From the NCBI GenBank assembly GCA_903915125.1, contig CAIWRR010000105.1:1-44379 (forward strand): 44,379 nt of DNA, written 5' to 3'. Positions 22,562 to 39,136 of the stretch are shown here, one piece after another. The stretch is from Candidatus Firestoneibacteriota bacterium. GTDB taxonomy: Bacteria > Oederibacteriota > D2-FULL-39-29 > CAIOVX01. Both the position numbers and the translations under genes were made by a program. The notes under the pieces were generated by a model. It was not told where the DNA came from and did no database searches. It saw nothing but the letters and a program-made list of their open reading frames with translations. Position 1 is the stretch's first letter. Each line of letters starts with the position of its first letter.

Positions 22562-22637
<76 letters not shown>

Positions 22638-24756: not shown

Positions 24757-27258
24757 TTATCTTGCAACCTTGAATGAAACCTTCTTTAGTATTCGTAGTT
24801 GGTAAATCGTGAAACCTATCAGCATCATTCCCATAATCCACGCTATTGCAGTTGCATACCCGAAACGCAGAAAAAGGAACGCATCCATCCATATCTCGAG
24901 TCCCAGCACATGAGTCGCGTGGCTCGGACCTCCTCCAGTCATTACCAGAATATTGCCCATTCCCTGGAAAGCGCCGATAAACGCTCCAACAAAGTTTATT
25001 ATTATAAGCGGTCTAAGCTGCGGCAGGGTCACAAACTTGATTTTCTGCCATGCCGAGGCTCCGTCTACATCGGCGGCCTCATAAAGGTCGTCCGGAATGC
25101 CTTGCAGCGCCGCAAGGTAAATAATGCTGCCCGGCCCTGCTCCCGCCCAAATATTAGGTATTATGACGCAAAGCATCGGAATTAGCGGATGCCGCGCATC
25201 CTGCAGCCACTTTTGCGCTCCGATGCCAAAAAGCCCCATTACTTTGTTTAAGAGACCGGAAGACGAAGGATCATAAAAACTCATCCAGAGTATAAGAAGC
25301 ACAAGAGAAGTAGTGAGCGCGGGCGTGTAGAAAAGCGTCCGGAAGAAGACCTTGCCTTTTGGAATTTCTGAAAGCACAAGCGCAACCATTATCGGAAGAA
25401 AAAAACCAAGTCCCAGTGTGAGTGAAACAAAAACAAGTGTGTTTGTAATCGATTTCCAGAAAAGCGGAGAAGAGAAAACATCGATGAAATTGTCAAGCCA
25501 GACAAAAGTGCTGGAACCTACAATTTTATAATCAAGGAATGCCAACCTGACGCCGTTCAACAGCGGGTAATACTGCCATACTGCAACTGAGAGCAAGGCG
25601 GGCAGCATAAAGAGCCAGGCAAGAACCGCGGTTCTGTGCTTTCCTTTGAGGCCGTCCGGTTTTTCATGGACATTTGTCTGCCGGTCGGAAGAGAAGATCC
25701 CGACGAGATTTTTGCCTGCAATTACCATTAACCAAACGAAAAGCGCGACCAGCACAAAGAAAATACCGTTGGCCCAGACACGCTTCCTATTCATCTCAAC
25801 CTGGTCTTTTACGCCGAGCAGAACCTTGTTTGATTTTTCAACAACCTTATTAAGTTCGGATTGAATGTCGCTATCTTCTTCTGTAAGGGCTTTGTCAACT
25901 GCCATCGGGAGTTCAACCGTGGCAACTGATTTGTAACCTGTAGCGTACGGTTCCGGGCGGGCGTTCTGTATCTGTCTTTTGTAAGAACTAACCCATGAGG
26001 CAGGTATTTGGTCGCAGTATTCCTCATATCCGAATTTCTTCAGGAGTTCGGGGTTGGCATATTGAGCCTGCCCGGATTCTACAATTGATTTTATCCTGAG
26101 CTTTGCCGCCTCATCGGATGCCTGGAATTTAATATATTCCCAGGCTGCGTCTCTTTTCTTTTTATCTTTTATCTGAGAGTTTATGCACCAGGTAATTGTC
26201 TGCATGTTGTTAGCTTCAATACCCGCAGGGCCGGCCGGTAAGGTCGCTATTCCTACTTCCGAAGGAGAGAATCCTGAATTGGCGGCAATCATGTCTCCGT
26301 TGGCATAGCTGAAAATCATGGCAACGTTTCCTTTTAGGAATTCTTTCATAGCGTAATCGTAATCGACAAGGACTTTCGCGCAACCCTGATAAGTCTTGCC
26401 GCCGCGTGAATACTTGCCATACTTGAACTTCTTAAGAAATTCAAGCGCTTCAATTCCGGGTTTCTCGTTGAAGGTCACTCTCCAAACATATTTATTAACT
26501 TTTGATATATCAGCGCCGCACTTTACGCATTTATCGGGATATATCGCCCAGCCGCTGTCGTACTTTCCTTCAAGCTGCTTGTTAGCTTCCTTGCAGGCAG
26601 AGCACTCTTTGTATTCGCGCGCCATCTCCCCGCCCGCTTGCCACACAAAGTTCGGAAAAAGCCATCCGCCCCAAATTCCAAGGCCTAAACCCAGCCCGTA
26701 CTGGCCTTTGCTTTCGTCTGTGAGTTTTTGGGAAAACTCATAGAGTTCATTCCAGTTTCTGGGAGGTTTTTCGGGATCAAGCCCGGCTTTCTTGAAAAGG
26801 TCTTTTCTGTAATACAGCCCGAAGGCTTCGCTGAAGCTTACCGGTATTCCGTAGATGTTGCCGCCGCGCCTGTCGTAATAGATTGGTTTAAATTTGTCCA
26901 GCATGAAAGGTGCGAAGAGTTTTTTGTCTTTCTCGTAATATTCATTAAGAGGGTACAGGAAGCCCTGTTCCATATAGAGCTTAAGCCCGCGAAAGCTTAC
27001 TTCAAAGATATCCGGGGCTGTTCCGGCGGCCATCGCCATCATAAATCCTGACTCGGCAGCGTTTCCGGTAACGGAGATTCCCCGGGTTTTGACTATATTG
27101 ATTTCAGGATGTTGTTTTACGAAAGCGTCGAAGACAACCCGGCCTTGAATATTCCAGGCTTCAGGGACATCCCACATATTTAAGGTAACCGGTTCCGGGC
27201 AGGCGGAGAAAGGACTGGCAAGCAGTATAGTGAGTAAAACGACGCGGAGCAACCTCAT
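24757..27258 (-). CDS. Fusion protein: extracellular solute-binding protein (family 1) + linker TM + MalF-like ABC permease
   Basis: It has an N-terminal signal/lipobox-like sequence (MRLLRVVLLTILLASPFSAC), then a roughly 460-aa SBP-like domain. A TM follows (WANGIFFVLVALFVWLMVIAG), then a 6-TM permease with the EAA loop (EAADVDGASAWQKIKFVTLPQLRP). I prefer the ATG at 27258 over the TTG at 27297. Confidence 0.8.
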   Translation of the reverse strand: MRLLRVVLLTILLASPFSACPEPVTLNMWDVPEAWNIQGRVVFDAFVKQHPEINIVKTRGISVTGNAAESGFMMAMAAGTAPDIFEVSFRGLKLYMEQGFLYPLNEYYEKDKKLFAPFMLDKFKPIYYDRRGGNIYGIPVSFSEAFGLYYRKDLFKKAGLDPEKPPRNWNELYEFSQKLTDESKGQYGLGLGLGIWGGWLFPNFVWQAGGEMAREYKECSACKEANKQLEGKYDSGWAIYPDKCVKCGADISKVNKYVWRVTFNEKPGIEALEFLKKFKYGKYSRGGKTYQGCAKVLVDYDYAMKEFLKGNVAMIFSYANGDMIAANSGFSPSEVGIATLPAGPAGIEANNMQTITWCINSQIKDKKKRDAAWEYIKFQASDEAAKLRIKSIVESGQAQYANPELLKKFGYEEYCDQIPASWVSSYKRQIQNARPEPYATGYKSVATVELPMAVDKALTEEDSDIQSELNKVVEKSNKVLLGVKDQVEMNRKRVWANGIFFVLVALFVWLMVIAGKNLVGIFSSDRQTNVHEKPDGLKGKHRTAVLAWLFMLPALLSVAVWQYYPLLNGVRLAFLDYKIVGSSTFVWLDNFIDVFSSPLFWKSITNTLVFVSLTLGLGFFLPIMVALVLSEIPKGKVFFRTLFYTPALTTSLVLLILWMSFYDPSSSGLLNKVMGLFGIGAQKWLQDARHPLIPMLCVIIPNIWAGAGPGSIIYLAALQGIPDDLYEAADVDGASAWQKIKFVTLPQLRPLIIINFVGAFIGAFQGMGNILVMTGGGPSHATHVLGLEIWMDAFLFLRFGYATAIAWIMGMMLIGFTIYQLRILKKVSFKVAR

Positions 27259-27312
27259 GGGTGAACTGTTTTTAACAGAATTGACAACAGGTGTCAACTC
27301 AAAAGCCGGAAT

Positions 27313-27786
27313 CTATACCATTAGCCTGAAGATATAAAGGCCAAGCGAAAAAGCGCCATACCAGCAAGTGGCGGATATACCTGCGCCTATAGCTCCAAAC
27401 AGCAGTGCTTTGCGGTACTCGGGTGTTTTTTCGAAATTAGGCAGTTCTACGGCCTTGTCCATCATTGGGTTGACTATGATATTCAGGAATAGTCCGTTAA
27501 TTGTGAGTAAAACCACGAAAACCATCTTCATGAAGAAGAGTTTCGAGTGGATAGCGTCTCCGTAGGTTGCGGCTGAGGTAAAATAGAGGGCAATACCTGA
27601 TGTCAGGAGCAGGAAAAGACCTACCCAAATCAGGAGCGACAATATCTTGAAAACCACGACAGCCTTCGGCATTATCTTCGGATTCAGCATGCCGTACGCG
27701 CCTAACACATACGTGACAGTACAGGTGCCTATTCCTACATCAAGACCGAAGACATGAAGTGCTACGAGCATGAAGTATAATGACAT
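27313..27786 (-). CDS. Hypothetical 4-TM membrane protein
   Basis: 157 aa with four hydrophobic spans and a good SD (GGAGGG). I recognise no family. Confidence 0.55.
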   Translation of the reverse strand: MSLYFMLVALHVFGLDVGIGTCTVTYVLGAYGMLNPKIMPKAVVVFKILSLLIWVGLFLLLTSGIALYFTSAATYGDAIHSKLFFMKMVFVVLLTINGLFLNIIVNPMMDKAVELPNFEKTPEYRKALLFGAIGAGISATCWYGAFSLGLYIFRLMV

Positions 27787-27833
27787 AAACCCTCCGCCAT
27801 TAGTAATAAATTACCATATTTACAGCTCTAAAA

Positions 27834-28328
27834 CTACTTTATTTTCCAGCCTGCCCATTTACTAGTTCTTTTCTCGAGCAAAGCCCTGACCTTGGCGACC
27901 AGCTCTTCGGGCTGCGCGGGTTTGTTGATGAACCCGTCTACAGGAAGGTAAGCAGACGCATCATGAGCAAAAGGTTTGTAGTACGCGTTCTCTTTCCCTC
28001 TGCCGGCCGGCATACCGTCCTTTTTAGGCAGAATGTCAAAAACCGGAAGCTTAAGGCTAACCGAGGTAATCATGAGTATGAGCGTGCCAGAAACCGCGGC
28101 GTCCCGGCGAATCTTAGATACGAGTTCAAGCCCGTTGGTTTTCCCGCCCGAGCCGAACATAACATCAAGCACCATAAGATCGGGTTTTTCTGTCTTAAGC
28201 CTAGCGAAGGCCGCGGCCGTGTCGTAAGCGTTTATAGTGGCCAAGCCCTCTGCCTCTAAAACAATCTTCATCGTCTCTATAAGGTCAATATCGTCGTCAG
28301 CGAGCAAAACTGTCTTTTTTTTCTTCAT
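27834..28328 (-). CDS. Stand-alone response regulator (receiver domain only)
   Basis: Starts MKKKKTVLLADDD, with phospho-acceptor context DLMVLDVMF, then LMITS and NKP. I set the start at ATG 28328. The ORF-track extension overlaps the kinase gene. Confidence 0.85.
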   Translation of the reverse strand: MKKKKTVLLADDDIDLIETMKIVLEAEGLATINAYDTAAAFARLKTEKPDLMVLDVMFGSGGKTNGLELVSKIRRDAAVSGTLILMITSVSLKLPVFDILPKKDGMPAGRGKENAYYKPFAHDASAYLPVDGFINKPAQPEELVAKVRALLEKRTSKWAGWKIK

Positions 28329-28332
28329 AACT

Positions 28333-29700
28333 TCAAACCTCAGCCGGATAAGCGGTTGCGGCAGGCAGGGTAAAAGTGAACCTGCTTCCCTGACCAAGCC
28401 TGCTTTCAAGCCATATCTTGCCATCATGAGAATCAAGGATCTGTTTTACAATAGATAAACCCAAGCCGGTGCCATCCTTCTCTATCATTCGGGCGTTCTC
28501 TGCTCTGTAAAAATCATTAAAGAGAAATTTCTGTTCTTCTTCGGCAATCCCTATGCCGGTATCTTTTATTGACACCTCTATATTCCCGTCCGTGTTCTTT
28601 AATTCCATGCTTATTTTCCCGCCTGAGGGCGTGTACCTTACGGCGTTTTCAAGCAGGTTCACAAAAACCCTTTCTATGGAGTCCTCATTAGCCAGAATCA
28701 TCGCTTCTTCGAGATGATCGTTGAAATCAAACTTTATCTTTTTGGATGTGAAGCGCTGTCCAAAATGTTCAACCATGTGTTCAGCAAGCATTGAGATAGA
28801 AATTTGGTTCTTTCGCAAGTTCCTGTCGGCTCGGATGCTGGAAAGATTCAGAAGGTCGCTGATGAAATTAAGCATGTAGATGCTGCGGCGCTCCGCTCTT
28901 GAGAGCATTTCAGCCGTTTTTGGGCCTATACTGCCGGTCAACCCCTTGAGCACAACTTTTAGACAGCTTTGAATTGTTGATACCGAGGATTTAAGGTCAT
29001 GCGATACCGTCAACACATACCGGGATTTCAACCGGTCCTGCTCTGCCAGCATTTTATTAGCCGCGTCAAGTTTTTCTTCCCTGTCCCGGAGCTTATTCAC
29101 TACAGTCACGGCCATAAAGATTGTTATAAATAGAGTCGAGGCCAGAACACCGATAGAACCGGCGAGAAACTTGGGGTCATAGATCATTTCCGATCCGGTG
29201 AATCCTGTAAGATGATAATGTGGAATTACTCGGCTGTGTTCAAGAAAAGAGGTTAGTCCTATCAACAAAACTGCGAAAACGCCGTGCGCGTAAGCCGCAC
29301 GGTTAGAAAGCAAGATGCCGGCGATTACCATGTGGAATATGAAATAATAAACGAAAGGATTCTCTATACTGCCGCCGAAGTGCAGGAAATACGTCAGCAT
29401 CAGCAGGTCTGTCGCCACCTGAATATTTGCAAAACTATTATGGCGCGTTTTATCATCTTTGTATCCAAAAACGAGGCGCTTCCAAAATACTAGAAACAGG
29501 GTATTGACGCCGGCAAGAAAAGCTGCGCCTCCATAGAGCCAACGCAGAGGCAGGTCAATATTTAGTGCGAGCGAAGCAATGGAAACTACTCCTGCGGCTC
29601 CTAATACTGCAAGCCAACGGAGGTCGATGAACCATTTCGTGCGTTCATTGACCCAGTTTTTGGCAATAATACTAATTTGAAACGCGCTTCGCAGCCCCAT
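28333..29700 (-). CDS. Polytopic membrane sensor histidine kinase
   Basis: It has about 6 N-terminal TM helices, the H-box SHDLKSSVSTI, the N-box NLLENAVRYTP, and G-boxes DTGIGI / GTGLGLSIVK. Confidence 0.9.
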   Translation of the reverse strand: MGLRSAFQISIIAKNWVNERTKWFIDLRWLAVLGAAGVVSIASLALNIDLPLRWLYGGAAFLAGVNTLFLVFWKRLVFGYKDDKTRHNSFANIQVATDLLMLTYFLHFGGSIENPFVYYFIFHMVIAGILLSNRAAYAHGVFAVLLIGLTSFLEHSRVIPHYHLTGFTGSEMIYDPKFLAGSIGVLASTLFITIFMAVTVVNKLRDREEKLDAANKMLAEQDRLKSRYVLTVSHDLKSSVSTIQSCLKVVLKGLTGSIGPKTAEMLSRAERRSIYMLNFISDLLNLSSIRADRNLRKNQISISMLAEHMVEHFGQRFTSKKIKFDFNDHLEEAMILANEDSIERVFVNLLENAVRYTPSGGKISMELKNTDGNIEVSIKDTGIGIAEEEQKFLFNDFYRAENARMIEKDGTGLGLSIVKQILDSHDGKIWLESRLGQGSRFTFTLPAATAYPAEV

Positions 29701-29703
29701 CGC

Positions 29704-30279
29704 CTACTTTGCAAGCTCCTGATAGACAGCGATGACCTTATTAACCGTAAAACAGGTGCATTCTGATGAAATAGTGGCGCCTGATACTCCGGTAACGCCT
29801 CTTCCAATCGCGACTCCTTCCCCTTTACCGCTGAACTGAGAGAGGAAATTTTTGGTGGCAATAGGGCGTCCTCTTTTTTCGGAAAGGGACATTACGGCCA
29901 TGTTTTTTACTTTAGCCGTCTTCGGATCAAGCATCACAATATATTTAACCGGGCCCCACTTGCCAGGCTCTTCTTCCATTATTGCCACGCCCGTCTTTTC
30001 TCCGCCCTTTATGCCGTAGTAGAAGGAGTATTCGGTCTCAGGTTTCCAGGTGTTCGCTTTGCCGGAACCTTTATATACCAGTGTTCCACCGAGTTTTTCT
30101 TTAATGTCGGCAAGCTGTTTGGTATTGAGTTTTTTCTGCACAGTCTCCACTTTGTCGGCGTCAGGAAACATTTCCTTTAAGGCCTGTTCACTCGTTAAGA
30201 GCTCCACCGCTAAACAGCTGCCGCCTAACGCAAAAAAACATACCGCGCCCATTACCAGCCTGATCATTTTATTCTTCAT
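29704..30279 (-). CDS. Exported FMN-binding domain protein (flavinylation substrate)
   Basis: It has a signal/anchor sequence (MIRLVMGAVCFFALGGSCLA) and a C-terminal FMN_bind motif, GVTGVSGATISS, containing the SGAT flavinylation site. Confidence 0.8.
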   Translation of the reverse strand: MKNKMIRLVMGAVCFFALGGSCLAVELLTSEQALKEMFPDADKVETVQKKLNTKQLADIKEKLGGTLVYKGSGKANTWKPETEYSFYYGIKGGEKTGVAIMEEEPGKWGPVKYIVMLDPKTAKVKNMAVMSLSEKRGRPIATKNFLSQFSGKGEGVAIGRGVTGVSGATISSECTCFTVNKVIAVYQELAK

Positions 30280-31292
30280 TGCTTTCCTCCTTTCTCTTTT
30301 AGAGAAAATAATTTAGTTAATCCGTCGGTTAGTGAAATCCCGCCGTCAGCGCCTATTATGATTGCTTCGGCACCGGGATATTTCTTTAACAGCTTAAGGC
30401 CCTTTTCCCTTCCGAGGACGAAGACGGAAGTAGACAGTAAGTTCGCCATTGTAGCGTCCGGAGTTAGCACCGCGACAGAAATCAACTCCGATGCGGGCGC
30501 CCCTTTAAGCGGATCAATAACGTGGCAGTATCTCTTGCCTTCTATTTCATAATATCTTTCATAATCTCCGGAGGTTGACATAGAAAGCTCTGTCATTCCC
30601 AAAATTCCAAGCGCGCCTTCTCCTCTGGGATTTTTAATTCCCGCCTTCCAGGGTTTCCCGTTATAAAGTCCTATTGCGTAAAGATCCCCGCCTAAATCCA
30701 CCATTGCGCTTCTTACGCCGGATTTCTTTAAAGATTTCATTGCCTCGCCGACTGCATACGCCTTTGCGCCGGCTCCCAGGTCAATTTCCGCTGAAGAACG
30801 AAGCTTGATCAGTTTACCGTTTTTCAACTCTATGCTTCCCGGCCCAATCATCTTTTGCGCAGCGGCAATCGCTTCTTTGGAAGGTATCATCGGGACTTTG
30901 GGAATTTCTCCGTAAAACCCCCAGAGTTTCACGAGCGGCGTGACGGTAATGTCAAAAGCTCCGCCGCTCTGTTGATTCATATCAAGGCATCTTTTTACAA
31001 GTCCAAGCGTTTCAGGGTCTGTTATCGGCGTGCCGTTCTTATTAAACTCATATACCGGGCTGCCCGGCCTGAAAGCGCTGAACTTCTTGTCAAGTTCTTC
31101 GACCCTGTCCAACGCAAGGTCAAGCGCCGCCGTGATTTTCTGATCCCCTTTGACGGGAGCCAGGACTGAACAATAGGTATCCATAAGATAACGCGTTCGT
31201 TTTGTCAACTCACCATCAGGGCCGGCAGACGCGAATAAAGGTATAGCCGCGCAAATAATCGCTATGTTAAGCAACCTTACCGCAAATTTCAT
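30276..31292 (-). CDS. apbE: FAD:protein FMN transferase (ApbE family)
   Basis: It has a signal peptide and ApbE-typical segments: FDITVTPL, AMVDLGGD and TSGDYERY. The start at ATG 31292 (SD AAAGAGG) lies downstream of a GC hairpin. Confidence 0.9.
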   Translation of the reverse strand: MKFAVRLLNIAIICAAIPLFASAGPDGELTKRTRYLMDTYCSVLAPVKGDQKITAALDLALDRVEELDKKFSAFRPGSPVYEFNKNGTPITDPETLGLVKRCLDMNQQSGGAFDITVTPLVKLWGFYGEIPKVPMIPSKEAIAAAQKMIGPGSIELKNGKLIKLRSSAEIDLGAGAKAYAVGEAMKSLKKSGVRSAMVDLGGDLYAIGLYNGKPWKAGIKNPRGEGALGILGMTELSMSTSGDYERYYEIEGKRYCHVIDPLKGAPASELISVAVLTPDATMANLLSTSVFVLGREKGLKLLKKYPGAEAIIIGADGGISLTDGLTKLFSLKEKGGKQ

Positions 31293-31305
31293 CTCAGCCT
31301 CTTTG

Positions 31306-31330
31306 GGGCGGCCGGATTCACCGGCCGCCC
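31306..31330 (-). other. Perfect 10-bp GC stem-loop between the porin and apbE cistrons
   Basis: GGGCGGCCGG-attca-CCGGCCGCCC. On the mRNA sense strand the U-run precedes the stem rather than following it, so this is not a canonical terminator. Confidence 0.55.
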
Positions 31331-31342
31331 GCCTCAAAAAAC

Positions 31343-32620
31343 TTAGAAAGTGGTTCTCCAGCCAAGCACCAGCCGGTTATAGTTCAGCTCAGCAGTGCTG
31401 TAAGCCGAGCTTGGCAAAAGGCTTATGCTTGAATTCTCTACATTTATCACCTGCAGGTAAATAATGGAATCAGGGGTTACGTAGAAATTCAAAATAGGGG
31501 AAATTTCAGTGTAGGTTTCATATGCAAAAGATTGTTTATTCGCTGCCGCAGTAGCTCCTCCGCCAATTACCGCTGCAGACTTGGGTAAACTGCTGAAATC
31601 CTGATCGTAGTGCGCGTATACCATTAAGAACCTGACCCAGGGCAATATCTTGTAACCAGCTTTTAAATAATATGAATGGGGAGTAAGGTTTCTCGTGACC
31701 TGAGTTGCGTCATTGATATCCGTATTGGCATACATTTTTACATTCGACCAGATGCCCCCCATATATTCCGTCCTGAATGTAAACTGATCATAATTGAACG
31801 CTACTCCGGCAGAATACCTGTATATGGGATTATTGCCTGTTGCGTCCATGGTAGTGAAATAGGAGCCCATAAATTTGAACGGTCCGATTTCCGGAGTAAT
31901 GTGCGCGAGCACTCCCCTGGAATTTGTGTTGCTGACGAGCATGTTCATGCCGCCGCCCAGTATATACAAATATGACGGCAGAGAAACAGGCCCGAGCTCG
32001 AAATTCTTATAAAATTCGAGTCCGGTATCGTCTAACGTTCCATAATAACCTCCGCATACCGCATAGTTCCCGAAAAATTCATCCTCGTACCAAAGCATAT
32101 TTCCGTAATCCTCTGTAAAGAGTGTGCGCAATGAACCCGCCGTGAGTTCGACAGCTTCAGGCAGCTTAACGGTAATCTGCGCTTTAAGCAATCCGAGACT
32201 GAGCGTCGGGCTCGTTGACGGATTTGGAAATGCCGTTCCAAGTTTAGGGGTTGCTCCTCCGCTTACCGATATTTCAGGGTCTATTTCCAGGGAAACATTT
32301 TCCGAGAGTTCCTTATTAATAAACAGGTAAAAACTGGTCATTCCGGAAAGGGCTCTTTCGCTTGCAGCAGCACCGCTGCTGACTCCTTCGGATTTGTCGT
32401 AAAGGTAAAACTTGAAGTTTCCGCCTACCGTGCCTCCGCTGTTTCCGGAGTTTGAGGAAGCCTTTACCTCAGGCGTTGCCGCCGCGGGCGCAGTTTTCAC
32501 ATCAGTATTTACCGCTGACGTCTCTGTTTTTGCCGGCGAGACATGGTCCTCCGCATAAGCCGATGCGAATGACGCAACAACTGCAGCGCAGAGAATAAAG
32601 ATTAATTTATTGTTCTTCAT
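31343..32620 (-). CDS. Putative outer-membrane beta-barrel porin
   Basis: It has a signal peptide ending ASA-YA, an alternating amphipathic strand pattern, and the C-terminal signature ...LGWRTTF (terminal Phe). Confidence 0.6.
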   Translation of the reverse strand: MKNNKLIFILCAAVVASFASAYAEDHVSPAKTETSAVNTDVKTAPAAATPEVKASSNSGNSGGTVGGNFKFYLYDKSEGVSSGAAASERALSGMTSFYLFINKELSENVSLEIDPEISVSGGATPKLGTAFPNPSTSPTLSLGLLKAQITVKLPEAVELTAGSLRTLFTEDYGNMLWYEDEFFGNYAVCGGYYGTLDDTGLEFYKNFELGPVSLPSYLYILGGGMNMLVSNTNSRGVLAHITPEIGPFKFMGSYFTTMDATGNNPIYRYSAGVAFNYDQFTFRTEYMGGIWSNVKMYANTDINDATQVTRNLTPHSYYLKAGYKILPWVRFLMVYAHYDQDFSSLPKSAAVIGGGATAAANKQSFAYETYTEISPILNFYVTPDSIIYLQVINVENSSISLLPSSAYSTAELNYNRLVLGWRTTF

Positions 32621-32679
32621 CCGTCCTCCTTGTTCTACTTTAAGTCTTTGGAATAATTTACGGATTACCTAATCCTCCT

Positions 32680-33783
32680 TTATCGCGCCCGCTCCGTCTC
32701 CGCATAGAGCAAAGCTACGAGATTTATCGCAACTGGCAAAGCTTTCTTGAAAATTGTCTTATCGAATTTGTGTTGTTTGAGATAAAGTCTTGATCTTTCC
32801 CAAAACACCGGTATGTTCTCCCAGGCAATCAGCACAATTCCGGAAAGCCGCTCGCTGATAATTTTTCTGAGACTCCCTGCAATTTCTATTGCCGGAGTTG
32901 AAGCGGAAAGCAGCGCGGTTGTCATCATCAAGAGGATCAATCTAGATGCAAAGAGCGCGCCTGTCAGAAGCCCGGTTCGCGTAACTTTTATAAACCAAAA
33001 AGAAAATATGTCCGCTCCGCCCTGGCTGAAAAGCGCGGGAATTGCCAAAGAGAAAAGAAGAAAGACGCGCAGTCTTTTCACTCCAGAGAGTATCTTTGAG
33101 ACCGGCGCCTTAAGCGTTGCTGCAGCCGCCAGTATCAGGACGAAGACCAGGGCATAAAGCATAAGGTCGCTCAGCAGCAGTACAATAACGCATAGCAGCA
33201 GCGCTATTATTAGCTTAGGCATTGCGGCCTTTGAGAATTCAGCAGGGCGTCTTATTTCTTGCGGACCGACAGCTTGAGGAAGCAAATCAGTTATCCCGCC
33301 GCTTTTTATCCTTGCAAAAACATTCATTGCAATGACTCCGGTGAGCCAGCCCATGACCACGGCGCTCGCCCCTAGCCAGGGCATAAGCACGAAGACTCCG
33401 GGATGGCGTATTAGCAGAAAGTATACTACAAGCAATTGGGTAAGAACATGGGCTACAGAACCAAATACGCTTGTGCTGATGAAACCCAGGTATTTGAATG
33501 TGAGGCCCATAAGCAACGTGCTTGTGAGGGCTCCTGACAGACTCATAACAAAGGCAGGCGAAAGAAAAGTTCCCAGGAAAAGAGAGCTCACCACAGTTCT
33601 GAGTATCGCGACTTCAAGGGCAGGAATGAAACCCATGTCAGCGAGGACAATCAGAGTTATTATGTTGGCGAGCCCTAATTTTACGCCCGGAATGGGGCTC
33701 GGTATCAAGAACTCGGCAGCCTGCAGCACAGAAGCACAGGAGACAAGGAGGGCTATTTTCTGTATCTTCTTCTCTTTATGCAT
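32680..33783 (-). CDS. Gx transporter family (Hpre_diP_synt_I-type) domain fused to a CbiQ/EcfT-like transmembrane domain
   Basis: Aa 1-165 match the Gx-transporter pattern (GVKLGLANIITL...RTVVSSLFLGTF...SLSGALTS...GSVAHVLTQLLVVY). Aa 180-367 form an extra 4-5 TM module with an EcfT-like tail (TPAIEIAGSLRKI...WENIPVFWERSR). Confidence 0.65.
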   Translation of the reverse strand: MHKEKKIQKIALLVSCASVLQAAEFLIPSPIPGVKLGLANIITLIVLADMGFIPALEVAILRTVVSSLFLGTFLSPAFVMSLSGALTSTLLMGLTFKYLGFISTSVFGSVAHVLTQLLVVYFLLIRHPGVFVLMPWLGASAVVMGWLTGVIAMNVFARIKSGGITDLLPQAVGPQEIRRPAEFSKAAMPKLIIALLLCVIVLLLSDLMLYALVFVLILAAAATLKAPVSKILSGVKRLRVFLLFSLAIPALFSQGGADIFSFWFIKVTRTGLLTGALFASRLILLMMTTALLSASTPAIEIAGSLRKIISERLSGIVLIAWENIPVFWERSRLYLKQHKFDKTIFKKALPVAINLVALLYAETERAR

Positions 33784-34161
33784 TTAGTAGCTCATTGCGA
33801 CGATATCGTCGTCGCCCGTCTTACCGGACACTTCAACCAATACTTTGTTTGCCACGCAGACTATAGATTCACCCGGGGATGATATGCGGCCAAAAGCCAC
33901 GCAGAGTCCTTTGGGGCAGTCAGAACGCAATACCCTAACCTTGCCGTTCTTTACCTCAATATCCATATTTCCCGCCGTTACCAGCCTGTCGGCGTCAAGA
34001 GGCCCTTCCGCCACAAGTTTGTTGTCTTTAAATACTTTGAAAACTTTTGGTCCGCTCGTATCCCGGTGCAGGTACCAGTAGGGAACGGCAAAAACCAAAA
34101 TAAGCATAATTATTGAAAAGGCAAGATCAAAAGGCCTTATTTTAAGCTTTAACTCAGCCAA
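33784..34161 (-). CDS. NusG domain II-containing protein (DUF1312 family), membrane-anchored
   Basis: It has one TM and a C-terminal motif CPKGLCVAFGRISSPGESIVCVANKVLVEV typical of the family. I set the start at TTG 34161 (SD GGAGG 4 nt upstream). The upstream ATGs lie 5' of the sigma54 promoter. Confidence 0.7.
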   Translation of the reverse strand: MAELKLKIRPFDLAFSIIMLILVFAVPYWYLHRDTSGPKVFKVFKDNKLVAEGPLDADRLVTAGNMDIEVKNGKVRVLRSDCPKGLCVAFGRISSPGESIVCVANKVLVEVSGKTGDDDIVAMSY

Positions 34162-34187
34162 GTTTCCTCCTGCGTATACATTATTCA

Positions 34188-34203
34188 AGCAAGAAACGTG
34201 CCA
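34188..34203 (-). promoter_or_regulatory. Sigma54 (-24/-12) promoter TGGCACGTTTCTTGCT
   Basis: The minus-strand read is gtcT TGGCAC GTTTC TTGCT Tgaat. This matches the TGGCAC-N5-TTGCW consensus. It lies 27 nt upstream of the NusG-II start and 172 nt downstream of the sigma54 activator gene. Confidence 0.75.
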
Positions 34204-34375
34204 AGACTGTTTCATTGGAAAATAATGGTTTTGAACGAATGAAATATGAGCAGGCATTACGAAAAAGTAATGTTTGCGAAGAAGGTAATGAATAAGTGGC
34301 ACTTTAAATGTTAGAAGAGAGATTACGCGAGCAGTGTTAAGGCGCAGGTTTTGGAAACAATCCCCGGTGTTTAAA

Positions 34376-35722
34376 TCAGTCTATTCCGTATTCTTTCGAT
34401 TTCTCCCAGAGAGTCTTGGCTGAAATTCCGAGAATTTCTGCCGCTTTCTTTTTTACGCCGCCGGAGTGTTCCAACGACAGCAGAATGTGTTCTTTCTCTG
34501 CCTTCCTTACGACAGAATCAAGGCTGGATTCCTTCCAGAAGTTCTTTTCCAGGAAGTAGGTCGGGAGTTCTGAAGTTTTTATCTCTTTGTTTGCGGCAAG
34601 ACTAACGAGGCGTTCTATAAGGTTCTCGAGCTCGCGAATATTTCCGGGCCAGTAATAACGCCCCATTGCCTGCAGCACAGCCGGTTCAAGCTCTGTTTCT
34701 TTCTTGGTAGAGTTATTGAACTTCCTGAGAAAATGCGCCGCCAGAGCAGGAATATCTTCGCTCCGTTCCCTGAGCGGCGGCAGATTAATCTGTACCACAT
34801 TTAATCTGTAATATAAATCTTCTCTGAAGGAACCTTCTTTAATTCTTTCCCTCAGGTCGGCTTTCGTGGCGGAAATAATGCGTACATCGGTTTTTATGGT
34901 TTCAGTTCCGCCCACTCTTTCAAATTCCCTTTGCTGAATGACCCTGAGCAGTTTAACCTGGGCCGAGAGCTTCATGTCGTCAATGTCGTCAAGAAATATT
35001 GTTCCACCGTCGGCGAGCTCAAATCTTCCTATTTTTTTTCTGATGGCATCCGTAAAAGCGCCTTTCTCGTGTCCAAAAAGTTCGCTTTCAAGCAAAGCTT
35101 CGGGCAGGGCGCTGCAGTTGATCTTTATTAGAGGCCCGTCTTTTCTCGGGCTGAGTTTATGTATGGCTTCCGCTGCCAGTTCCTTTCCGGTGCCGTTCTC
35201 GCCCTGAACAAGGACCGTGGTATTGTACTGCGCGACTGATTCAATGAGCCTGAAAACATTTTCCATGACCCGGCTCTTGCCTATTATATTGACAAGCGAG
35301 CCGGACGGGCCCAGCCTGTTTTTTAGAATCATATTCTCTTTTTTGAGGGACTGCAGTTCAAGCCCGTTTCTTATGAGGAGCAGCATTTCTTCGACCAGGA
35401 AAGGTTTGGTCAGATAATCGAAAGCCCCGAGTTTCATAGCCTGGACGGCGGTTTCAACCGTGCCATAACCCGTCATAATTATGCAGACTGTTTCAGGAGA
35501 GGCTTCTTTAATGCGTTTCAGCACAGAAATACCGTCAAGCTTAGGCAGTTTCAAGTCCAGGATGACCAGCTCGAAATCGTTTTTTTTGAATTTTTCCACA
35601 CCTTCTATGCCGTCTACAGCCGGAGTTGTCGAAAACCCCGCCCGCCCAAGATTGTCCTCAAGCATATTGAGCATAAGGTCGTCGTCTTCAATTAGAAGTA
35701 TCCGCGGACCGGTTTCTGTCAT
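34376..35722 (-). CDS. Sigma54-dependent response regulator (NtrC family: receiver + AAA+ + Fis-type HTH)
   Basis: It has REC (ILLIEDDD...LVILDLKLP), Walker A GENGTGKE, a GAFTGA-variant loop EKGAFTDA, and a C-terminal HTH AAEILGISAKTLWEK. Confidence 0.95.
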   Translation of the reverse strand: MTETGPRILLIEDDDLMLNMLEDNLGRAGFSTTPAVDGIEGVEKFKKNDFELVILDLKLPKLDGISVLKRIKEASPETVCIIMTGYGTVETAVQAMKLGAFDYLTKPFLVEEMLLLIRNGLELQSLKKENMILKNRLGPSGSLVNIIGKSRVMENVFRLIESVAQYNTTVLVQGENGTGKELAAEAIHKLSPRKDGPLIKINCSALPEALLESELFGHEKGAFTDAIRKKIGRFELADGGTIFLDDIDDMKLSAQVKLLRVIQQREFERVGGTETIKTDVRIISATKADLRERIKEGSFREDLYYRLNVVQINLPPLRERSEDIPALAAHFLRKFNNSTKKETELEPAVLQAMGRYYWPGNIRELENLIERLVSLAANKEIKTSELPTYFLEKNFWKESSLDSVVRKAEKEHILLSLEHSGGVKKKAAEILGISAKTLWEKSKEYGID

Positions 35723-36807
35723 TTAAGCTCCTTGTATACCGGCAAGGTTATGCTGACTGCTGCACCGCCTTCCGGAGTGTTGTTAATGTCGAGCGTGCCT
35801 CTAAGCACTTGTATAATATTATAGCTGATAAACAACCCGAGGCCTGTTCCTTCGCCTACTTCTTTTGTAGTAAAGAATGGTGTGAAGAGTTTTTCTTTTT
35901 GCTCAGGAGTTATGCCCGCTCCGCTGTCTTTGAAAATTATGGAGATTACGTCGCCGTTTGCAAGAGTCGAGATTACAGTTTCTTTCCTTTTGGTTTTCTC
36001 CATTGCGTCAGCCGCATTCTTTAAAATATTATTGAAGACCTGGCTAAGCTGGGACGGGTCGGCGTATGTCTTCGGCAGATCAGGCGCGAGTTCCAGAGTG
36101 ATTTTTACTGACTTTTCTTTAAGCCTGAACCTGTTGAAATCGGCCAATTCCAGGAGCAATTTGTTTATGTCCACAGGTTCAAGATTTTGGCGTCCGGAGT
36201 AGCTGAGGATTTGTTTGACTACATTATCTATCCTGAACAGGCCTTTTAAGCTTTGTTCCAGATAATTTCGCGCGTCAGTTTTAAGTTCCGGATCAGAAAG
36301 CGCCGTGCGAATATAATTGATAACAGCTCCGAGCGGGTTGTTTATCTCGTGCGCGATGCCGGCAGAGAACCTGCTGAGCGCGGCGACCTTTGCCGCCTGC
36401 GAGAGCCGCGATTCCGCCTCTTTAAGTTCTGCCGTCCTGTTCCTGACTGTCACGCCTATTTCCCTGTTCTTTTTATCCAGTTCCTTTAACAGATAAACGC
36501 TCGTAGTCTTAAATTCCGATAATTTCTTCTGGGCCTCGGTTAGTTCCTCTTTTTCTTTCAGGAGTTTTTCGGTAACAGATTTGAATTGCGCGGACATGAC
36601 CTCGAGTGTTTGAAAGCAGTCAGCGGGATTATAATTAGCTTTGAACACTCTGCAGTCAACGCAGGCAGACATCTTTTCTATGCAGTCGCCGCTTATCGTG
36701 TCATTGCACAAAGTTCCGCCGACCAGCCAGCATTTCTTTTCTGAATTTTCGCGCGCAGGGCATTCTTTCAGCCCGCATTCCAGTATTTCCCAGCAATTGT
36801 TTTTCAT
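35719..36807 (-). CDS. Soluble histidine kinase with a Cys-rich N-terminal sensor domain
   Basis: There are no TM segments. Nine Cys fall within aa 1-64, including two CW dipeptides. A coiled coil follows, then the H-box AHEINNPLGAV, the N-box NILKNAADAM, and DSGAGI / GTGLGLFISY. Confidence 0.9.
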   Translation of the reverse strand: MKNNCWEILECGLKECPARENSEKKCWLVGGTLCNDTISGDCIEKMSACVDCRVFKANYNPADCFQTLEVMSAQFKSVTEKLLKEKEELTEAQKKLSEFKTTSVYLLKELDKKNREIGVTVRNRTAELKEAESRLSQAAKVAALSRFSAGIAHEINNPLGAVINYIRTALSDPELKTDARNYLEQSLKGLFRIDNVVKQILSYSGRQNLEPVDINKLLLELADFNRFRLKEKSVKITLELAPDLPKTYADPSQLSQVFNNILKNAADAMEKTKRKETVISTLANGDVISIIFKDSGAGITPEQKEKLFTPFFTTKEVGEGTGLGLFISYNIIQVLRGTLDINNTPEGGAAVSITLPVYKELK

Positions 36808-37269
36808 TTAAAACTCGAGCACCGTGGGCGCTTCATCGTTTAGAGCCTCGCTATAAACACGGAAACGCAGCAGCGTGGGGGAAAGTTTGAGGAAAACGAA
36901 ATGTTCCGCAGTCAGCCCTGCCTCGAGGGCCACATCGGCAAATGGATTTCTTCCTTTTAATGCTTGCAGAGCGCGTCCTTGCTCTTGCTCGGAATCAATA
37001 ACGCTCACATAACCATTTAGCTCGCATTCCCAGGAAAGATCGAATGGAGTTTCGAGGCTGTGCACCAGTACGCTCACCTTGCCGGCATCCGAGAGGTGCG
37101 ACAGTTTGGGGCTGTCTTTTAGAGTCATCAGGTAACACTCAAACTTTTCTGAAATTCCATAATACATAATACGAAGGCGTATCTGCCCGCCTTTGTTATC
37201 ATTCGTCGCGATAACTGCGACCTGGCTTTCCTTCAGACGTTTTATTATCACATCCTTGGAATACTGCAT
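36808..37269 (-). CDS. Pyridoxamine 5'-phosphate oxidase-like (split-barrel FMN-binding) family protein
   Basis: 153 aa. The pattern VAVIATNDNKGGQIRLRIMYY...CYLMTLKDSPK resembles the PNPOx/GSP26-like fold. The start is ATG 37269, preceded by the SD GGAGGG. Confidence 0.5.
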   Translation of the reverse strand: MQYSKDVIIKRLKESQVAVIATNDNKGGQIRLRIMYYGISEKFECYLMTLKDSPKLSHLSDAGKVSVLVHSLETPFDLSWECELNGYVSVIDSEQEQGRALQALKGRNPFADVALEAGLTAEHFVFLKLSPTLLRFRVYSEALNDEAPTVLEF

Positions 37270-37441
37270 TGTGAACCCTCCCTGCATGACTAACTATATC
37301 TTATATCAATAAAGAACGCTGTTCAAGGAGTAAGCGGGTATTAATTGACATATTAACGAAAAGGAAGGTAACTGGGAGAAAGAAAATACAAATAGGCCTC
37401 AATTTGAATGAGACGGAACGGCTAAGGTACCTGCAGAAAAT

Positions 37442-38926
37442 CTACTTCATCAGAGGATCTCTTTTGGCTTCCTCAACTATTTCATCGATTGCCTTGACCT
37501 GTTCCCGGCTTAGCGGAGATTCTGCTTCCACGGCGAGAAGCTCCTCGGCCTTGGCTGCCGCGAGCTTTTCGAATCTGCGGCTATCCAGCGAATCACCCGT
37601 ACCCCACGAAAGAGCGTCAAAAAAAGGCGAGAGCAGCTCCTCCTCCTTAAAGCGAAGCATCGTGCTTTCGCTGCTTACCGTATTCCCGCCGATACCGGCG
37701 CTTTTTACGGTTTCATAATCAAGCGTCTCATCCGTAACTTCGACCCCCTTTACGGCGCGCCGCACATAGCGGGCAATTTCGTTGTCAATGACAAGCTGTA
37801 ACGGAGAGAAAGTTATGGCGTTCTCAAGATGGCCTACCGTTCCAAAACCTATAGCCCCGGCGAGGACAGGAGCAAGCATTGATATTCCTTTCTCAACACC
37901 TGCCTGAATACCGGCAACACACGCGTTAGTCTTTCCCCCGTGCACTCCTGAAGGACAGCCGTAGAACTCGCTAATAAGTTGTATCCTTGCCGAAAGCAGC
38001 GGCACTCTCTCCGCCCCGGCGTAACCGAAGAGCATGGAGCGCATATCGCAGTATCCCGGGTTGATATCCACTCCGATTGTTGCTTCCGGGTTGACGGCAA
38101 AACCAAGGACCAGCCCGCCAAGCGTCTCTGCGGCTCCCATCGAAAGTGTTCCGGCGGCAGACATTGGTGTTGTGGCGCCCGCGTTTGGCATTGATTCAAT
38201 GGTCTGCGGCAGGCCTCTTTCAAGATGAGCAATAAGCACATCCGCCATAACCTCGTCCAGGCAAAGCGGCGATCTTACTTCCGCGTAACCGGCAAGGATA
38301 GGGTTTTCTTGCAACGCTTTTGTTCCGCCTTGCACAACTTCGCCTATTCTTGAAATGTATTCGACATCGCGCGCTTTAAAAGTTTCAATTCCCCCAAACT
38401 TCTTTGTGGCCTTCGCGAGCTCGGCAGCCATAGCAACAGTTCGAATTCCAACAGGCACTTCCTGCGCGGCAACAGGGAGACCGGAATAAGTAATCTGATC
38501 CAGTCTGTCGGCAAGTTTCAATGAATCTCTGACATCGGAAATTGAGGCAGGCCTTCTTTTGCCGTCGAGATCCAGGACAAAACAGCAAAACCCGCCGGTT
38601 GAAACAGAGAAATCCTCATGAATTTTAAAGGGCTTTTTATCGAACCTCACCTGCGAATAGCGGACTGACATTCTCTTGGGGAGTCTTTTTGAAGAGGAAT
38701 AGTTGGCCTTCATCTTTGTGACCGCGTTCTCGATGATTTGTCTTGGAAATTTGACGGTTCTTCTTTCAAAATCGACGCTGCAGCCCGCGTCGCGCAGGTA
38801 CTCAAGCGATTTTAAATGGTCAATCTTCATGCCTGTGTCTTCAAGTATTCTGCAGGCATTCTCGTGAATACGCTGCATTTCTTCGGCCGACAGGAATCTT
38901 ACCGGTTCCATTTCAGAAGTTTTCAT
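37442..38926 (-). CDS. MttB-superfamily methyltransferase, non-pyrrolysine type (quaternary amine:corrinoid methyltransferase-like)
   Basis: 494 aa counted from ATG 38926 (SD GGAGG). It shows family-wide resemblance (RIHENACRILEDTGMKI..., ...GYAEVRSPL...). There is no in-frame TAG. Confidence 0.8.
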   Translation of the reverse strand: MKTSEMEPVRFLSAEEMQRIHENACRILEDTGMKIDHLKSLEYLRDAGCSVDFERRTVKFPRQIIENAVTKMKANYSSSKRLPKRMSVRYSQVRFDKKPFKIHEDFSVSTGGFCCFVLDLDGKRRPASISDVRDSLKLADRLDQITYSGLPVAAQEVPVGIRTVAMAAELAKATKKFGGIETFKARDVEYISRIGEVVQGGTKALQENPILAGYAEVRSPLCLDEVMADVLIAHLERGLPQTIESMPNAGATTPMSAAGTLSMGAAETLGGLVLGFAVNPEATIGVDINPGYCDMRSMLFGYAGAERVPLLSARIQLISEFYGCPSGVHGGKTNACVAGIQAGVEKGISMLAPVLAGAIGFGTVGHLENAITFSPLQLVIDNEIARYVRRAVKGVEVTDETLDYETVKSAGIGGNTVSSESTMLRFKEEELLSPFFDALSWGTGDSLDSRRFEKLAAAKAEELLAVEAESPLSREQVKAIDEIVEEAKRDPLMK

Positions 38927-38957
38927 ATAGACCTCCGATTCAAATTGCATTTTACTA

Positions 38958-38986
38958 ATTATATCTGTTGCCGCTGCAGTTGACCA
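38958..38986 (-). promoter_or_regulatory. Candidate sigma70 promoter for the mttB-like gene (TGGTCA-17 nt-TATAAT)
   Basis: The minus-strand read is TGGTCA actgcagcggcaacaga TATAAT, 32 nt upstream of the ATG. Confidence 0.35.
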
Positions 38987-39049
38987 GGGTTTATTATTGG
39001 AGTTTATTGTGATAAGTCGGGTTAAAATACGATATAGAGAAAACCGTAA

Positions 39050-39078
39050 TTGACATAAGTTTATTAATAGAATATAAT
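39050..39078 (+). promoter_or_regulatory. Consensus sigma70 promoter (TTGACA-17 nt-TATAAT) for the + strand OMP/FN3-propeller pair
   Basis: The plus-strand read is TTGACA taagtttattaatagaa TATAAT, 58 nt upstream of ATG 39137. Confidence 0.6.
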
Positions 39079-39136
39079 AATTCTGTTTGAAAGTATTGTC
39101 GGTCAGCAGGCTGATAATCCTGCTCGGGAGATTCAA

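Follow-up and report, generated by a model that had tools for sequence, protein, structure and literature searches.

Gene order and its conservation

Contig CAIWRR010000105.1 of Candidatus Firestoneibacteriota bacterium, the whole 44,379 nt of which are called the window below, contains a block of 11 open reading frames (ORFs), all on the minus strand, running from position 37287 down to 27313. In transcription order they encode a PNPOx-like flavoprotein, a soluble histidine kinase, a sigma-54 activator, an EetA homologue, an EetB::FmnA-type transporter fusion, an outer-membrane porin, the flavin transferase ApbE, an FMN_bind protein, a polytopic histidine kinase, a receiver-only response regulator and a protein with four transmembrane (TM) segments, with junctions of 0, -4, 214, 0, 59, 50, -4, 3, 4 and 47 nt. 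The original prediction, made from the sequence alone, was of a unitary extracytoplasmic flavin module under sigma-54 control, equipped with an outer-membrane channel and two sensor systems, which was supported by our analysis and found to be conserved in relatives. As an overall interpretation it was only partly right, and it overlooked the most unusual part of the block, namely the porin as a member of a family dedicated to ApbE loci and bearing a conserved flavinylation-like motif.

The common strand and the junctions of 59 nt or less with a single exception of 214 nt agreed with the predicted values, but the number of co-oriented genes had been given as twelve and the coordinates hold 11; twelve can be reached by scoring the transporter fusion twice or by adding the ATP-binding cassette (ABC) gene that lies 15 nt downstream. 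Each family assignment exceeded the curated cut-off of its hidden Markov model (Pfam gathering cut-offs), the porin itself having no Pfam match, and smaller details were also confirmed: the soluble kinase has nine cysteines up to residue 64, the FMN_bind protein carries SGAT as its residues 166-169, and the product of the last gene has four hydrophobic segments. One N-terminal hydrophobic segment each was found in EetA, ApbE, the FMN_bind protein and the porin.

Conservation of the gene order in other genomes, which had been suggested as a check, was observed in relatives whose fusion proteins were 78%, 49% and 37% identical to that of the window. The closest locus (L003, 78%) had all 11 genes in identical order with the same flanks, and all 11 were also present in L001, a Firestonebacteria metagenome-assembled genome (MAG, 49%), where the four-TM gene directly followed the FMN_bind gene and genes for a polyprenyl synthase and a 239-aa protein were added. 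L006 (37%, labelled Armatimonadetes) encoded PNPOx, kinase, activator, EetA, fusion, porin, flavin adenine dinucleotide (FAD) synthetase, ApbE and FMN_bind proteins, the FAD_syn gene being located between those of the porin and ApbE. The order EetA, fusion, porin, ApbE and FMN_bind of the window recurred in L013, a MAG of Spirochaetia, and in L014, a MAG of Planctomycetota, and this order, recurring in diderm candidate phyla, appears undescribed. In L005 and L092 the five core genes were rearranged and a gene for an Aq_1264_TM protein was added, and in L004 and several other diderm loci EetA, fusion and ApbE genes were found with no porin gene within 10 kb. The block is a genuine conserved functional unit, the genes of which are probably transcribed together. 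The ApbE gene of L001 (L001:12726-13747) and the fusion and porin genes of L088 (L088:559-3518) were each split into two ORFs, probably by assembly or frameshift errors and not as pseudogenes.

The predicted FAD-export and flavinylation core

The EetA homologue (33784..34161) is a NusG_II/DUF1312 protein of 125 aa (PF07009, 77 bits) with a TM helix at residues 13-31, translated from a TTG start after AGGAGG. Its relatives in the PDB, 4ESN and Lin0431, are both of unknown function, and its gene abuts that of the fusion with a junction of 0 nt. The fusion (32680..33783, 367 aa) combines a domain of the FAD-binding type that resembles the S component of energy-coupling factor (ECF) transporters (residues 13-153; PF07456 Hpre_diP_synt_I, 118.7 bits at a cut-off of 30) with a truncated ECF-T-like domain (about residues 188-367; PF02361 CbiQ, 42.8 bits at a cut-off of 25). 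The profile of the fusion family aligned with EcfT (4HUQ_T, residues 8-203) at E=1.3e-34.

The ARG motifs of EcfT dock the ECF ATPases. At the position of the first of these motifs, where EcfT has QRARG, the fusion reads KQHKFD with no Arg-Gly, and its chain ends shortly past this position, the C-terminal ~75 residues with the second motif being missing (C-terminal half of the gene, 32680-33240). The fusion family as a whole seems to lack the ATPase docking sites, and an ECF S-T fusion without them poses the question of what energises FAD export; such an ARG-less fusion appears undescribed in the literature that we searched. Homologous fusions formed more than 110 clusters at 90% identity, with named taxa including Firestonebacteria, Elusimicrobiota, Armatimonadota, KSB1, Thermodesulfobacteriota and Desulfosarcina, and full-length matches were also found in Omnitrophota, Lentisphaerae, Planctomycetota and Spirochaetia MAGs. 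A scan of GTDB genomes with the fusion alignment yielded mostly EetB-only loci of Firmicutes and about six full-length fusions, among which there was no species-level relative of the window.

The gene for ApbE (30276..31292) encodes an FmnB-type FAD:protein transferase of flavin mononucleotide (FMN), with 338 aa from an ATG at 31292, a signal peptide with a hydrophobic segment at residues 3-21 and a match to PF02424 of 256 bits over the full length of the profile; the L003 orthologue is likewise 338 aa long. Next to it lies the gene for the FMN_bind protein (29704..30279), a PplA/RnfG-like candidate substrate of 191 aa that is exported or membrane-anchored (PF04205, 28.8 bits at a cut-off of 22) and has the canonical flavinylation motif SGAT at residues 166-169 (29773..29784). 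The motif [ST]GAT was kept in 11 of 11 aligned members of its subfamily, which is distinct, conserved and present in each sufficiently extended porin locus except L093, and Thr169 is the residue that would be flavinylated. With its size, its anchor at the N-terminus and its SGAT site the protein is similar to RnfG, but its scores of 45, 30 and 18 bits against RnfG models were far below the respective cut-offs of 205, 230 and 102, and no RnfA-E or Nqr genes were found in the window; it was accordingly not assigned to the RnfG/NqrC class of Rnf or Na+-NQR. No sequence relative of the FMN_bind protein was found in the PDB. Periplasmic ApbE would use exported FAD to attach FMN covalently to Thr169.

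An extracellular electron transfer (EET) locus encoding EetA, EetB, FmnA, FmnB and PplA was reportedly described in Listeria monocytogenes by Light in 2018. Listeria EetB is a PF07456 protein (annotated as 'Gx transporter' or 'heptaprenyl diphosphate synthase component I') that is ECF-S-like and binds FAD (Rivera-Lugo et al. 2023, PMC9973259), and FmnA is ECF-T-like; the FAD that these two and EcfA/A' export is used by the extracytosolic ApbE (FmnB) to flavinylate PplA (PMC9973259). In the same study eetB adjoined eetA in 3,328 genomes and apbE in 2,169 genomes, and single proteins joining EetB and ECF-T domains had already been noted (PMC9973259). The DUF1312 of EetA is carried by lmo2639 of the Listeria EET locus (PMC3091722). 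By homology, the NusG_II, Gx::EcfT, ApbE and FMN_bind proteins of the window are the counterparts of EetA, EetB::FmnA, FmnB and a PplA-type substrate, and EetA with the fusion would move FAD from the cytoplasm to the periplasmic face. The combination had not been recognised as a described system, but because its core consists of counterparts of a Listeria set the route of which was published in 2023 (PMC9973259), we regard the FAD-export and flavinylation core as one of a known kind.

The window holds the five equivalent functions, clustered as in thousands of genomes: an EetB-like S component, an ECF-T-like partner, an adjacent EetA, an extracytosolic ApbE and an FMN_bind protein with [S/T]GA[S/T]. 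Of the usual partners said to be absent, Rnf, Nqr, NosR, Ndh2 and Dmk were indeed not found in the window, but the same did not hold for the Listeria-type EET genes, five of the eight functions of which are present. There were no NosR or Dmk genes anywhere in the window and no Ndh2, DmkA or DmkB in the 44 kb, which therefore lacks the complete FLEET set (Ndh2, DmkA/B, EetA/B, FmnA/B and PplA). Differences from the Listeria set also include the diderm host, the lack of nearby EcfA/A', the truncated T domain without ARG docking motifs, the dedicated porin gene within the operon, the single FMN_bind domain of the substrate, which is more RnfG-like than PplA-like, and a sigma-54 control system comprising a two-CW kinase and a PNPOx-like protein.

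The same genes could in principle serve flavin scavenging, in which the porin would admit environmental flavins, ApbE would act as a trafficking enzyme like Treponema Ftp, the fusion would import and the FMN_bind protein would simply bind flavin. ECF S and T components are classically importers (PMC9973259), the Treponema Ftp/ApbE protein is described as a periplasmic flavin-trafficking protein (PMC4436053), and with the ATPase-docking motifs absent the Listeria export mechanism is not simply transferable. However, Listeria EetB was no substitute for RibU in uptake and showed a strict export directionality (PMC9973259), and the covalent-attachment motif in all FMN_bind members argues for a role as redox carrier rather than binding protein. 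In L006, the gene for a cytoplasmic FAD synthetase within the module also fits a supply of FAD for export, and the neighbouring genes of the related loci are respiratory and cytochrome genes. We therefore consider scavenging improbable and export of FAD by the fusion, by analogy with Listeria, the likelier direction.

The porin family and proposed electron transfer across the outer membrane

The porin gene (31343..32620) encodes a protein of 425 aa with a signal peptide and a C-terminal ...RTTF. An AlphaFold2 model built from a 46-sequence alignment (pLDDT 85.6, pTM 0.80), which superseded a first run with a 7-sequence alignment (pLDDT 54), had 16 strands, connected by turns of 2 to 6 residues at one end of the barrel and by long loops at the opposite end. 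Strands 5 and 6 were joined via a helical loop (residues 166-196) corresponding to the classical L3 constriction, and residues 22-58 formed a disordered extension. The best Foldseek matches were the trimeric porins PorB, Omp38, Omp32, OmpF and OprP, with OmpM1 also matched, at TM-scores of 0.6-0.69 and E=3e-10 to PorB and Omp38. The signal peptide, the barrel with L3 and the C-terminal aromatic residue are the structural features of 16-strand porins, and the short periplasmic turns and helical L3 are shared with OmpF, PorB, Omp32 and OprP. On the other hand, the window porin lies outside the Pfam and NCBIfam porin models, neither database giving a match or a named family that fits, and it differs from trimeric porins and OmpM in having a family confined to apbE loci and a motif in loop L2. 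Porin_O_P was matched by three of ten relatives (best 3.4e-6).

When 1.84 billion representative proteins were searched exhaustively with HMMER, the porin family had 115 representatives, 69 of them below 1e-30, and because just 115 members were found among so many proteins we regard the family as small and discrete and not as generic porins. Its taxa included Firestonebacteria relatives, Elusimicrobiota, Omnitrophota, Planctomycetota, Spirochaetia and Margulisiibacteriota. The apbE gene adjoined the porin gene or was at most two genes away from it in 15 of 15 sufficiently extended loci (the window, L001, L003, L005, L006, L013, L014, L087, L088, L090, L091, L092 and three paralogues in L093). 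The linkage was also examined from the porin side by four contig look-ups with distant porin representatives, and not the transporter, as the starting point, plus one short contig; in L090, L091 and L092, which were reached in this way, apbE was the next gene after the porin. The L092 member (L092:8187-10431) had an N-terminal SLH domain, as in the peptidoglycan tether of OmpM, and in L092 and L005 (L005:7179-8885) a membrane protein of ~150-167 aa of the Aq_1264_TM family was encoded beside the porin.

The best-conserved loop feature of the family, with the consensus S-T-[G/S]-A-T-P-[K/R]-L-G, lies at the start of loop L2 and reads SGGATPKLG in the window porin (residues 120-128; 32237..32263), making Thr124 a candidate site of flavinylation by ApbE. 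Among the 69 strong members of full length, the acceptor T/S was present in 68, Ala(-1) in 66, G or S(-2) in 65 and Pro(+1) in 67; the strict motif [S/T]GA[S/T] occurred at this site in 33, with G/S-A-T conserved in 63-68. In an 80-sequence alignment, 34 of the 36 strict [ST]GA[ST] matches fell in the column of the porin site, whereas the next-best column had loose matches in 3 of 80. The loop also resembles the flavinylation site of RnfD, and because the RnfD homologue encoded in L006 reads DAVTSATPLT at its flavinylation site, thus containing TSATPL, we regard T-[G/S]-A-T-P as a genuine ApbE-type context. A seven-residue tag is sufficient for ApbE, with a minor effect of changing Asp to Ala and ~50% flavinylation still observed after changing Gly to Ala or Ala to Val (PMC12052999).

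A precedent for a large envelope target other than FMN_bind is DUF3570 (PF12094), a protein of ~420 aa purified from the insoluble fraction and a proven ApbE substrate (Meheust 2021, PMC8238504). The window porin is of similar size, is encoded beside apbE and has a motif of the [S/T]GA[S/T] type, but the two have no detectable sequence kinship, the porin has one motif instead of two, and its partners are EetA, EetB and FMN_bind proteins instead of the DsbD, thioredoxin-like and DUF4266 proteins of DsbD-type clusters; the porin is a candidate substrate. Membership in DUF3570 was rejected, with no PF12094 match at E<=10 in ten family members, leaving it as an analogue. In L093 (L093:6201-11152), an apbE gene in two ORFs was flanked by genes for three porin paralogues of 360, 398 and 383 aa, together with genes for a PilS-like kinase and a receiver protein, and the aligned sites of the paralogues read TTSSTP, TVGATP and VKANP. 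No FMN_bind gene was found within 10 kb in L093, where the porins were the sole local candidates for an ApbE substrate; the arrangement is suggestive of porins as ApbE targets, though its apbE is split.

The neighbourhoods of related loci were in part respiratory. Downstream of the module, L006 had genes for RnfC, RnfD, RnfG, two Rnf-Nqr subunits and an NqrF-like Fer2/FAD/NAD protein, forming an Rnf/Nqr hybrid cluster, followed by UbiA (L006:7223-15902, counted with the FAD synthetase gene within the module). The module of L091 had UbiA on its upstream and nuo genes on its downstream side, L004 encoded a Psr-like molybdoenzyme together with Tat, and polyprenyl synthase genes were present in L001 and L087. 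In L090 (L090:4378-14447), the five core genes were situated between two cytochrome gene sets, one encoding an 8-haem lipoprotein, a 3-haem protein and a cytochrome b and the other an OmcA_N lipoprotein and a 10-haem MtrC/MtrF-like protein. No MtrA/MtrB pair was found in L090, which by its sequence has the gene content of an extracellular electron-transfer pathway minus MtrA/MtrB. The block contained no CXXCH proteins, L090 being the only relative with multihaem cytochromes.

Flavin-based EET and flavinylation by ApbE have been well worked out for Gram-positive cells and inner-membrane complexes, and to our knowledge the sole established trans-outer-membrane wires are porin-cytochrome complexes. 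In the MtrCAB conduits of Shewanella and Geobacter, a barrel of ~26 strands is combined with the periplasmic decahaem MtrA. The window resembles them in that genes for a barrel and for a periplasmic redox protein occur together, L090 adding MtrC/OmcA-like surface decahaem lipoproteins, and in the presumed purpose of carrying electrons across the outer membrane. It differs from an MtrAB-type system in that the barrel has 16 strands, the partner is a flavoprotein instead of decahaem MtrA, and there are no cytochromes. With 16 strands compared with about 26, the window porin cannot sheath a protein wire.

From these observations, we consider it rather probable that the block comprises two transcription units building a redox-regulated flavin electron-transfer module in a diderm envelope. 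Its regulation, FAD export and flavinylation of the FMN_bind protein would follow from homology to characterised families, and we infer in addition an outer-membrane step by which electrons cross that membrane, as well as their source and sink. The 16-strand porin would link the periplasmic flavoprotein to the outside, most likely via a covalent FMN of its own on Thr124 of L2 or, alternatively, as a channel for flavins or for the acceptor. More specifically, and tentatively, at what we would judge to be rather less than an even chance, the porin family may be a new class of ApbE substrate that receives FMN on Thr124 when still unfolded and in transit through the periplasm, before membrane insertion, and forms with the flavinylated FMN_bind protein a cytochrome-free trans-outer-membrane conduit, a diderm counterpart of Gram-positive flavin EET that in some lineages would feed MtrC/OmcA cytochromes. 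Flavinylation of the porin is thus proposed as a hypothesis and not as a fact. If true, it would add a new class of ApbE substrate and another mode of electron passage through an outer membrane, and the block thereby hints at a route free of cytochromes. Irrespective of this, a porin family confined to apbE loci with a conserved flavinylation-like site is present in several poorly known diderm phyla, and this diderm packaging of the core with a dedicated porin family appears undescribed in the literature that we searched.

Several observations weigh against a flavin conduit of this kind. The window porin has GGAT instead of [S/T]GAT and no Asp at -6, and its conserved loop could be purely structural. 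In the AlphaFold2 model in the canonical orientation, the motif is located on the extracellular rim at the start of L2 while ApbE is periplasmic, and ApbE would therefore have to modify the porin before its insertion into the outer membrane. About 6 of 16 fusion-bearing diderm loci had no porin gene within 10 kb. No recognised transmembrane electron carrier (Ndh2, NapH, MsrQ, PepSY, DsbD, Rnf/Nqr or cytochrome) was found in the window, nor were genes for the ECF ATPases EcfA/EcfA' found in the 44 kb, and the fusion has neither ARG motif; the direction and energisation of FAD transport are extrapolated from Listeria. Finally, a Listeria delta-eetA mutant had no EET phenotype (PMC9973259).

Some of the same observations would suit a service operon, exporting FAD and flavinylating proteins for inner-membrane complexes encoded elsewhere (Rnf, Nqr-like, Nuo-linked or molybdoenzyme), in which the FMN_bind protein would be a periplasmic or anchored carrier serving these complexes, the porin an ordinary channel for solutes such as phosphorylated compounds, and no electrons would cross the outer membrane. 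The best NCBIfam match of the FMN_bind protein was RnfG_DVU2794 (45 bits at a cut-off of 205), the variable neighbours (Rnf/Nqr-like in L006, nuo in L091, Psr-like molybdoenzyme and Tat in L004) suit a general role, some porin relatives match the phosphate-selective Porin_O_P, and several fusion loci are without a porin. However, L006 encodes a separate RnfG besides the FMN_bind protein of the module, a generic channel is not expected near apbE in 15 of 15 loci or as an apbE-confined family, the single conserved ApbE-like motif would be left unexplained, and L090 ties the core to surface-type MtrC/OmcA cytochromes. We consider such a service role unlikely, though less so than the other alternatives.

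Regulatory genes and flanking sequences

The block and its regulatory unit open with the gene of the PNPOx-like split-barrel flavoprotein (36808..37287), a soluble protein of 159 aa without a hydrophobic segment (PF01243 PNPOx_N, 33.3 bits at a cut-off of 28.1), orthologues of which occupy the equivalent position in L001, L003 and L006. It is followed by the soluble histidine kinase (35719..36807), which has HisKA and HATPase_c domains, no hydrophobic segment and a Cys-rich N-terminal sensor consisting of a two-CW domain (residues 4-57; NF045718, 40.4 bits at a cut-off of 35) with 9 Cys in residues 5-64, and by the NtrC-type activator (34376..35722), with REC, AAA+ and HTH_8 domains (Response_reg 91.8, Sigma54_activat 241.5 and HTH_8 44.7 bits) and the loop GAFTDA. 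This unit of PNPOx-like protein, two-CW kinase and activator was kept in L001, L003 and L006, and we did not find it described in the literature, where it appears to be new.

The 214-nt gap downstream of the activator gene contains the predicted sigma-54 promoter as an exact match, TGGCACGTTTCTTGCT at 34188-34203 (TGGCAC-N5-TTGC at 34189..34203), which is the only exact TGGCAC-N5-TTGCW in the 44 kb. AGGAGG lies about 17 nt further downstream, ahead of the TTG codon at 34161 that starts the NusG_II gene. With one mismatch allowed, 2 matches were observed and 1.5 expected, and because such matches are as frequent as by chance, support for the promoter rests on its position and on conservation, the equivalent gaps containing TGGCACGCTTCTTGCT in L003, TGGCATGCTTATTGCT in L001 and TGGCATAATTATTGCC in L006. 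A palindrome, TTAC-N6-GTAA (34257..34270), preceded by a second CATTAC at 34290, is a candidate activator-binding site (upstream activating sequence), and ATTAC-N6-GTAAT was found in the equivalent gap of L001, L003 and L006 ahead of each promoter. A bacterial enhancer-binding protein with REC, Sigma54_activat and HTH_8 domains and a -24/-12 promoter upstream of the operon are the elements of sigma-54 two-component control, and with the GAFTDA loop and upstream palindrome they are as in NtrB/NtrC-type systems, but the sensor here, a kinase with a Cys-rich two-CW domain, is soluble and has a PNPOx-like protein as its partner. No rpoN gene was found in the window. The three proteins would sense the cytoplasmic redox or flavin state, and the activator would then bind TTAC-N6-GTAA and fire the promoter at 34189-34203. 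The conserved unit provides a handle on an uncharacterised sensor domain. In L004 (L004:12457-14063), a weaker PNPOx relative was encoded between two Rrf2 regulator genes beside a core of EetA, fusion and ApbE without the sigma-54 unit, which suggests that the PNPOx-like protein accompanies the module under differing regulators. Scans for sigma-70 promoters and intrinsic terminators gave no more matches than shuffled sequences and were uninformative on internal promoters, and no FMN riboswitch or other Rfam element was detected in the block.

The second sensor system is located at the other end of the block. Its polytopic histidine kinase (28333..29700) has a PilS/RegB-like six-TM sensor (6TM_PilS 31 bits, HATPase_c 108 bits and HisKA) and aligned over its full length with RegB/PrrB (NF033792, residues 20-434), but at 107 bits it was below the cut-off of 350 and cannot be assigned to RegB/PrrB/ActS. 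Its residues 109-116 read GGSIENPF (GG-x3-NPF), similar to the GGXXNPF of RegB, which is a ubiquinone-binding site (PMC3000548); the spacing of this loop is one residue off in the window and the same in L003, exact in L001 (GGIENPF), and the loop is absent in L087. The response regulator encoded next (27834..28328, 164 aa) has a receiver domain (Response_reg, 52.2 bits) and no output domain. The last gene (27313..27786) encodes the four-TM protein of 157 aa, with four hydrophobic segments and invariant H11 and C22, which belongs to a narrow family of 11 clusters, seen within this module only, in L001, L003, L087 and L088 besides the window, and includes a Firestonebacteria protein 70% identical to it. 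The family has sub-threshold similarity to CopD/DUF2214, CopD being weakly matched by 4 of 10 members, and no PDB relative was found. In the proposed module, the RegB/PilS-like membrane kinase, the receiver-only protein and the CopD-like four-TM protein would couple its activity to the redox state of the membrane. A kinship of the four-TM protein to the Aq_1264_TM proteins encoded at a similar position in L005 and L092 was rejected, hhalign finding no relationship, and with a single invariant His it is unlikely to be a two-haem cytochrome b.

The CopD-like protein also bears on a further explanation, assimilatory reduction of iron or other metals, in which the flavinylated protein would reduce Fe(III) chelates entering via the porin and the four-TM protein would handle the metal. 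Many uncharacterised clusters with ApbE and FMN_bind proteins have been tied to iron assimilation (PMC8238504), and the matches to the CopD family, weak as they are, would agree with it. However, the CopD similarity is sub-threshold, and no VIT1, FTR1/P19, TonB receptor or Feo was found in the window or the related loci examined, and we regard this explanation as very improbable compared with a flavin electron-transfer module.

Directly upstream of the block, an MttB-superfamily (trimethylamine methyltransferase-like) gene (37442-39136) lies on the same strand, and the gap of 154 nt between them contains a weak terminator-like hairpin (37396-37414). Downstream, 15 nt past the four-TM gene and on the same strand, lies the gene of an 846-aa protein (24757-27297) in which an ABC permease domain is joined to an extracellular domain for solute binding (SBP_bac_1), an arrangement kept in L003; a second large permease gene follows (22694-24577). 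The other genes of the window encode housekeeping functions (LolA, FtsK, HtrA, FTHFS, DnaJ, GatB and Pst/PhoU), and the flanks are unrelated to the block. A 151-aa ORF antisense to the fusion gene (33332-33787, plus strand) was without support and is probably spurious. The sole RNA gene detected in the window, and its single Rfam match, was a tRNA-Thr (CGT) gene on the minus strand (22562-22637).

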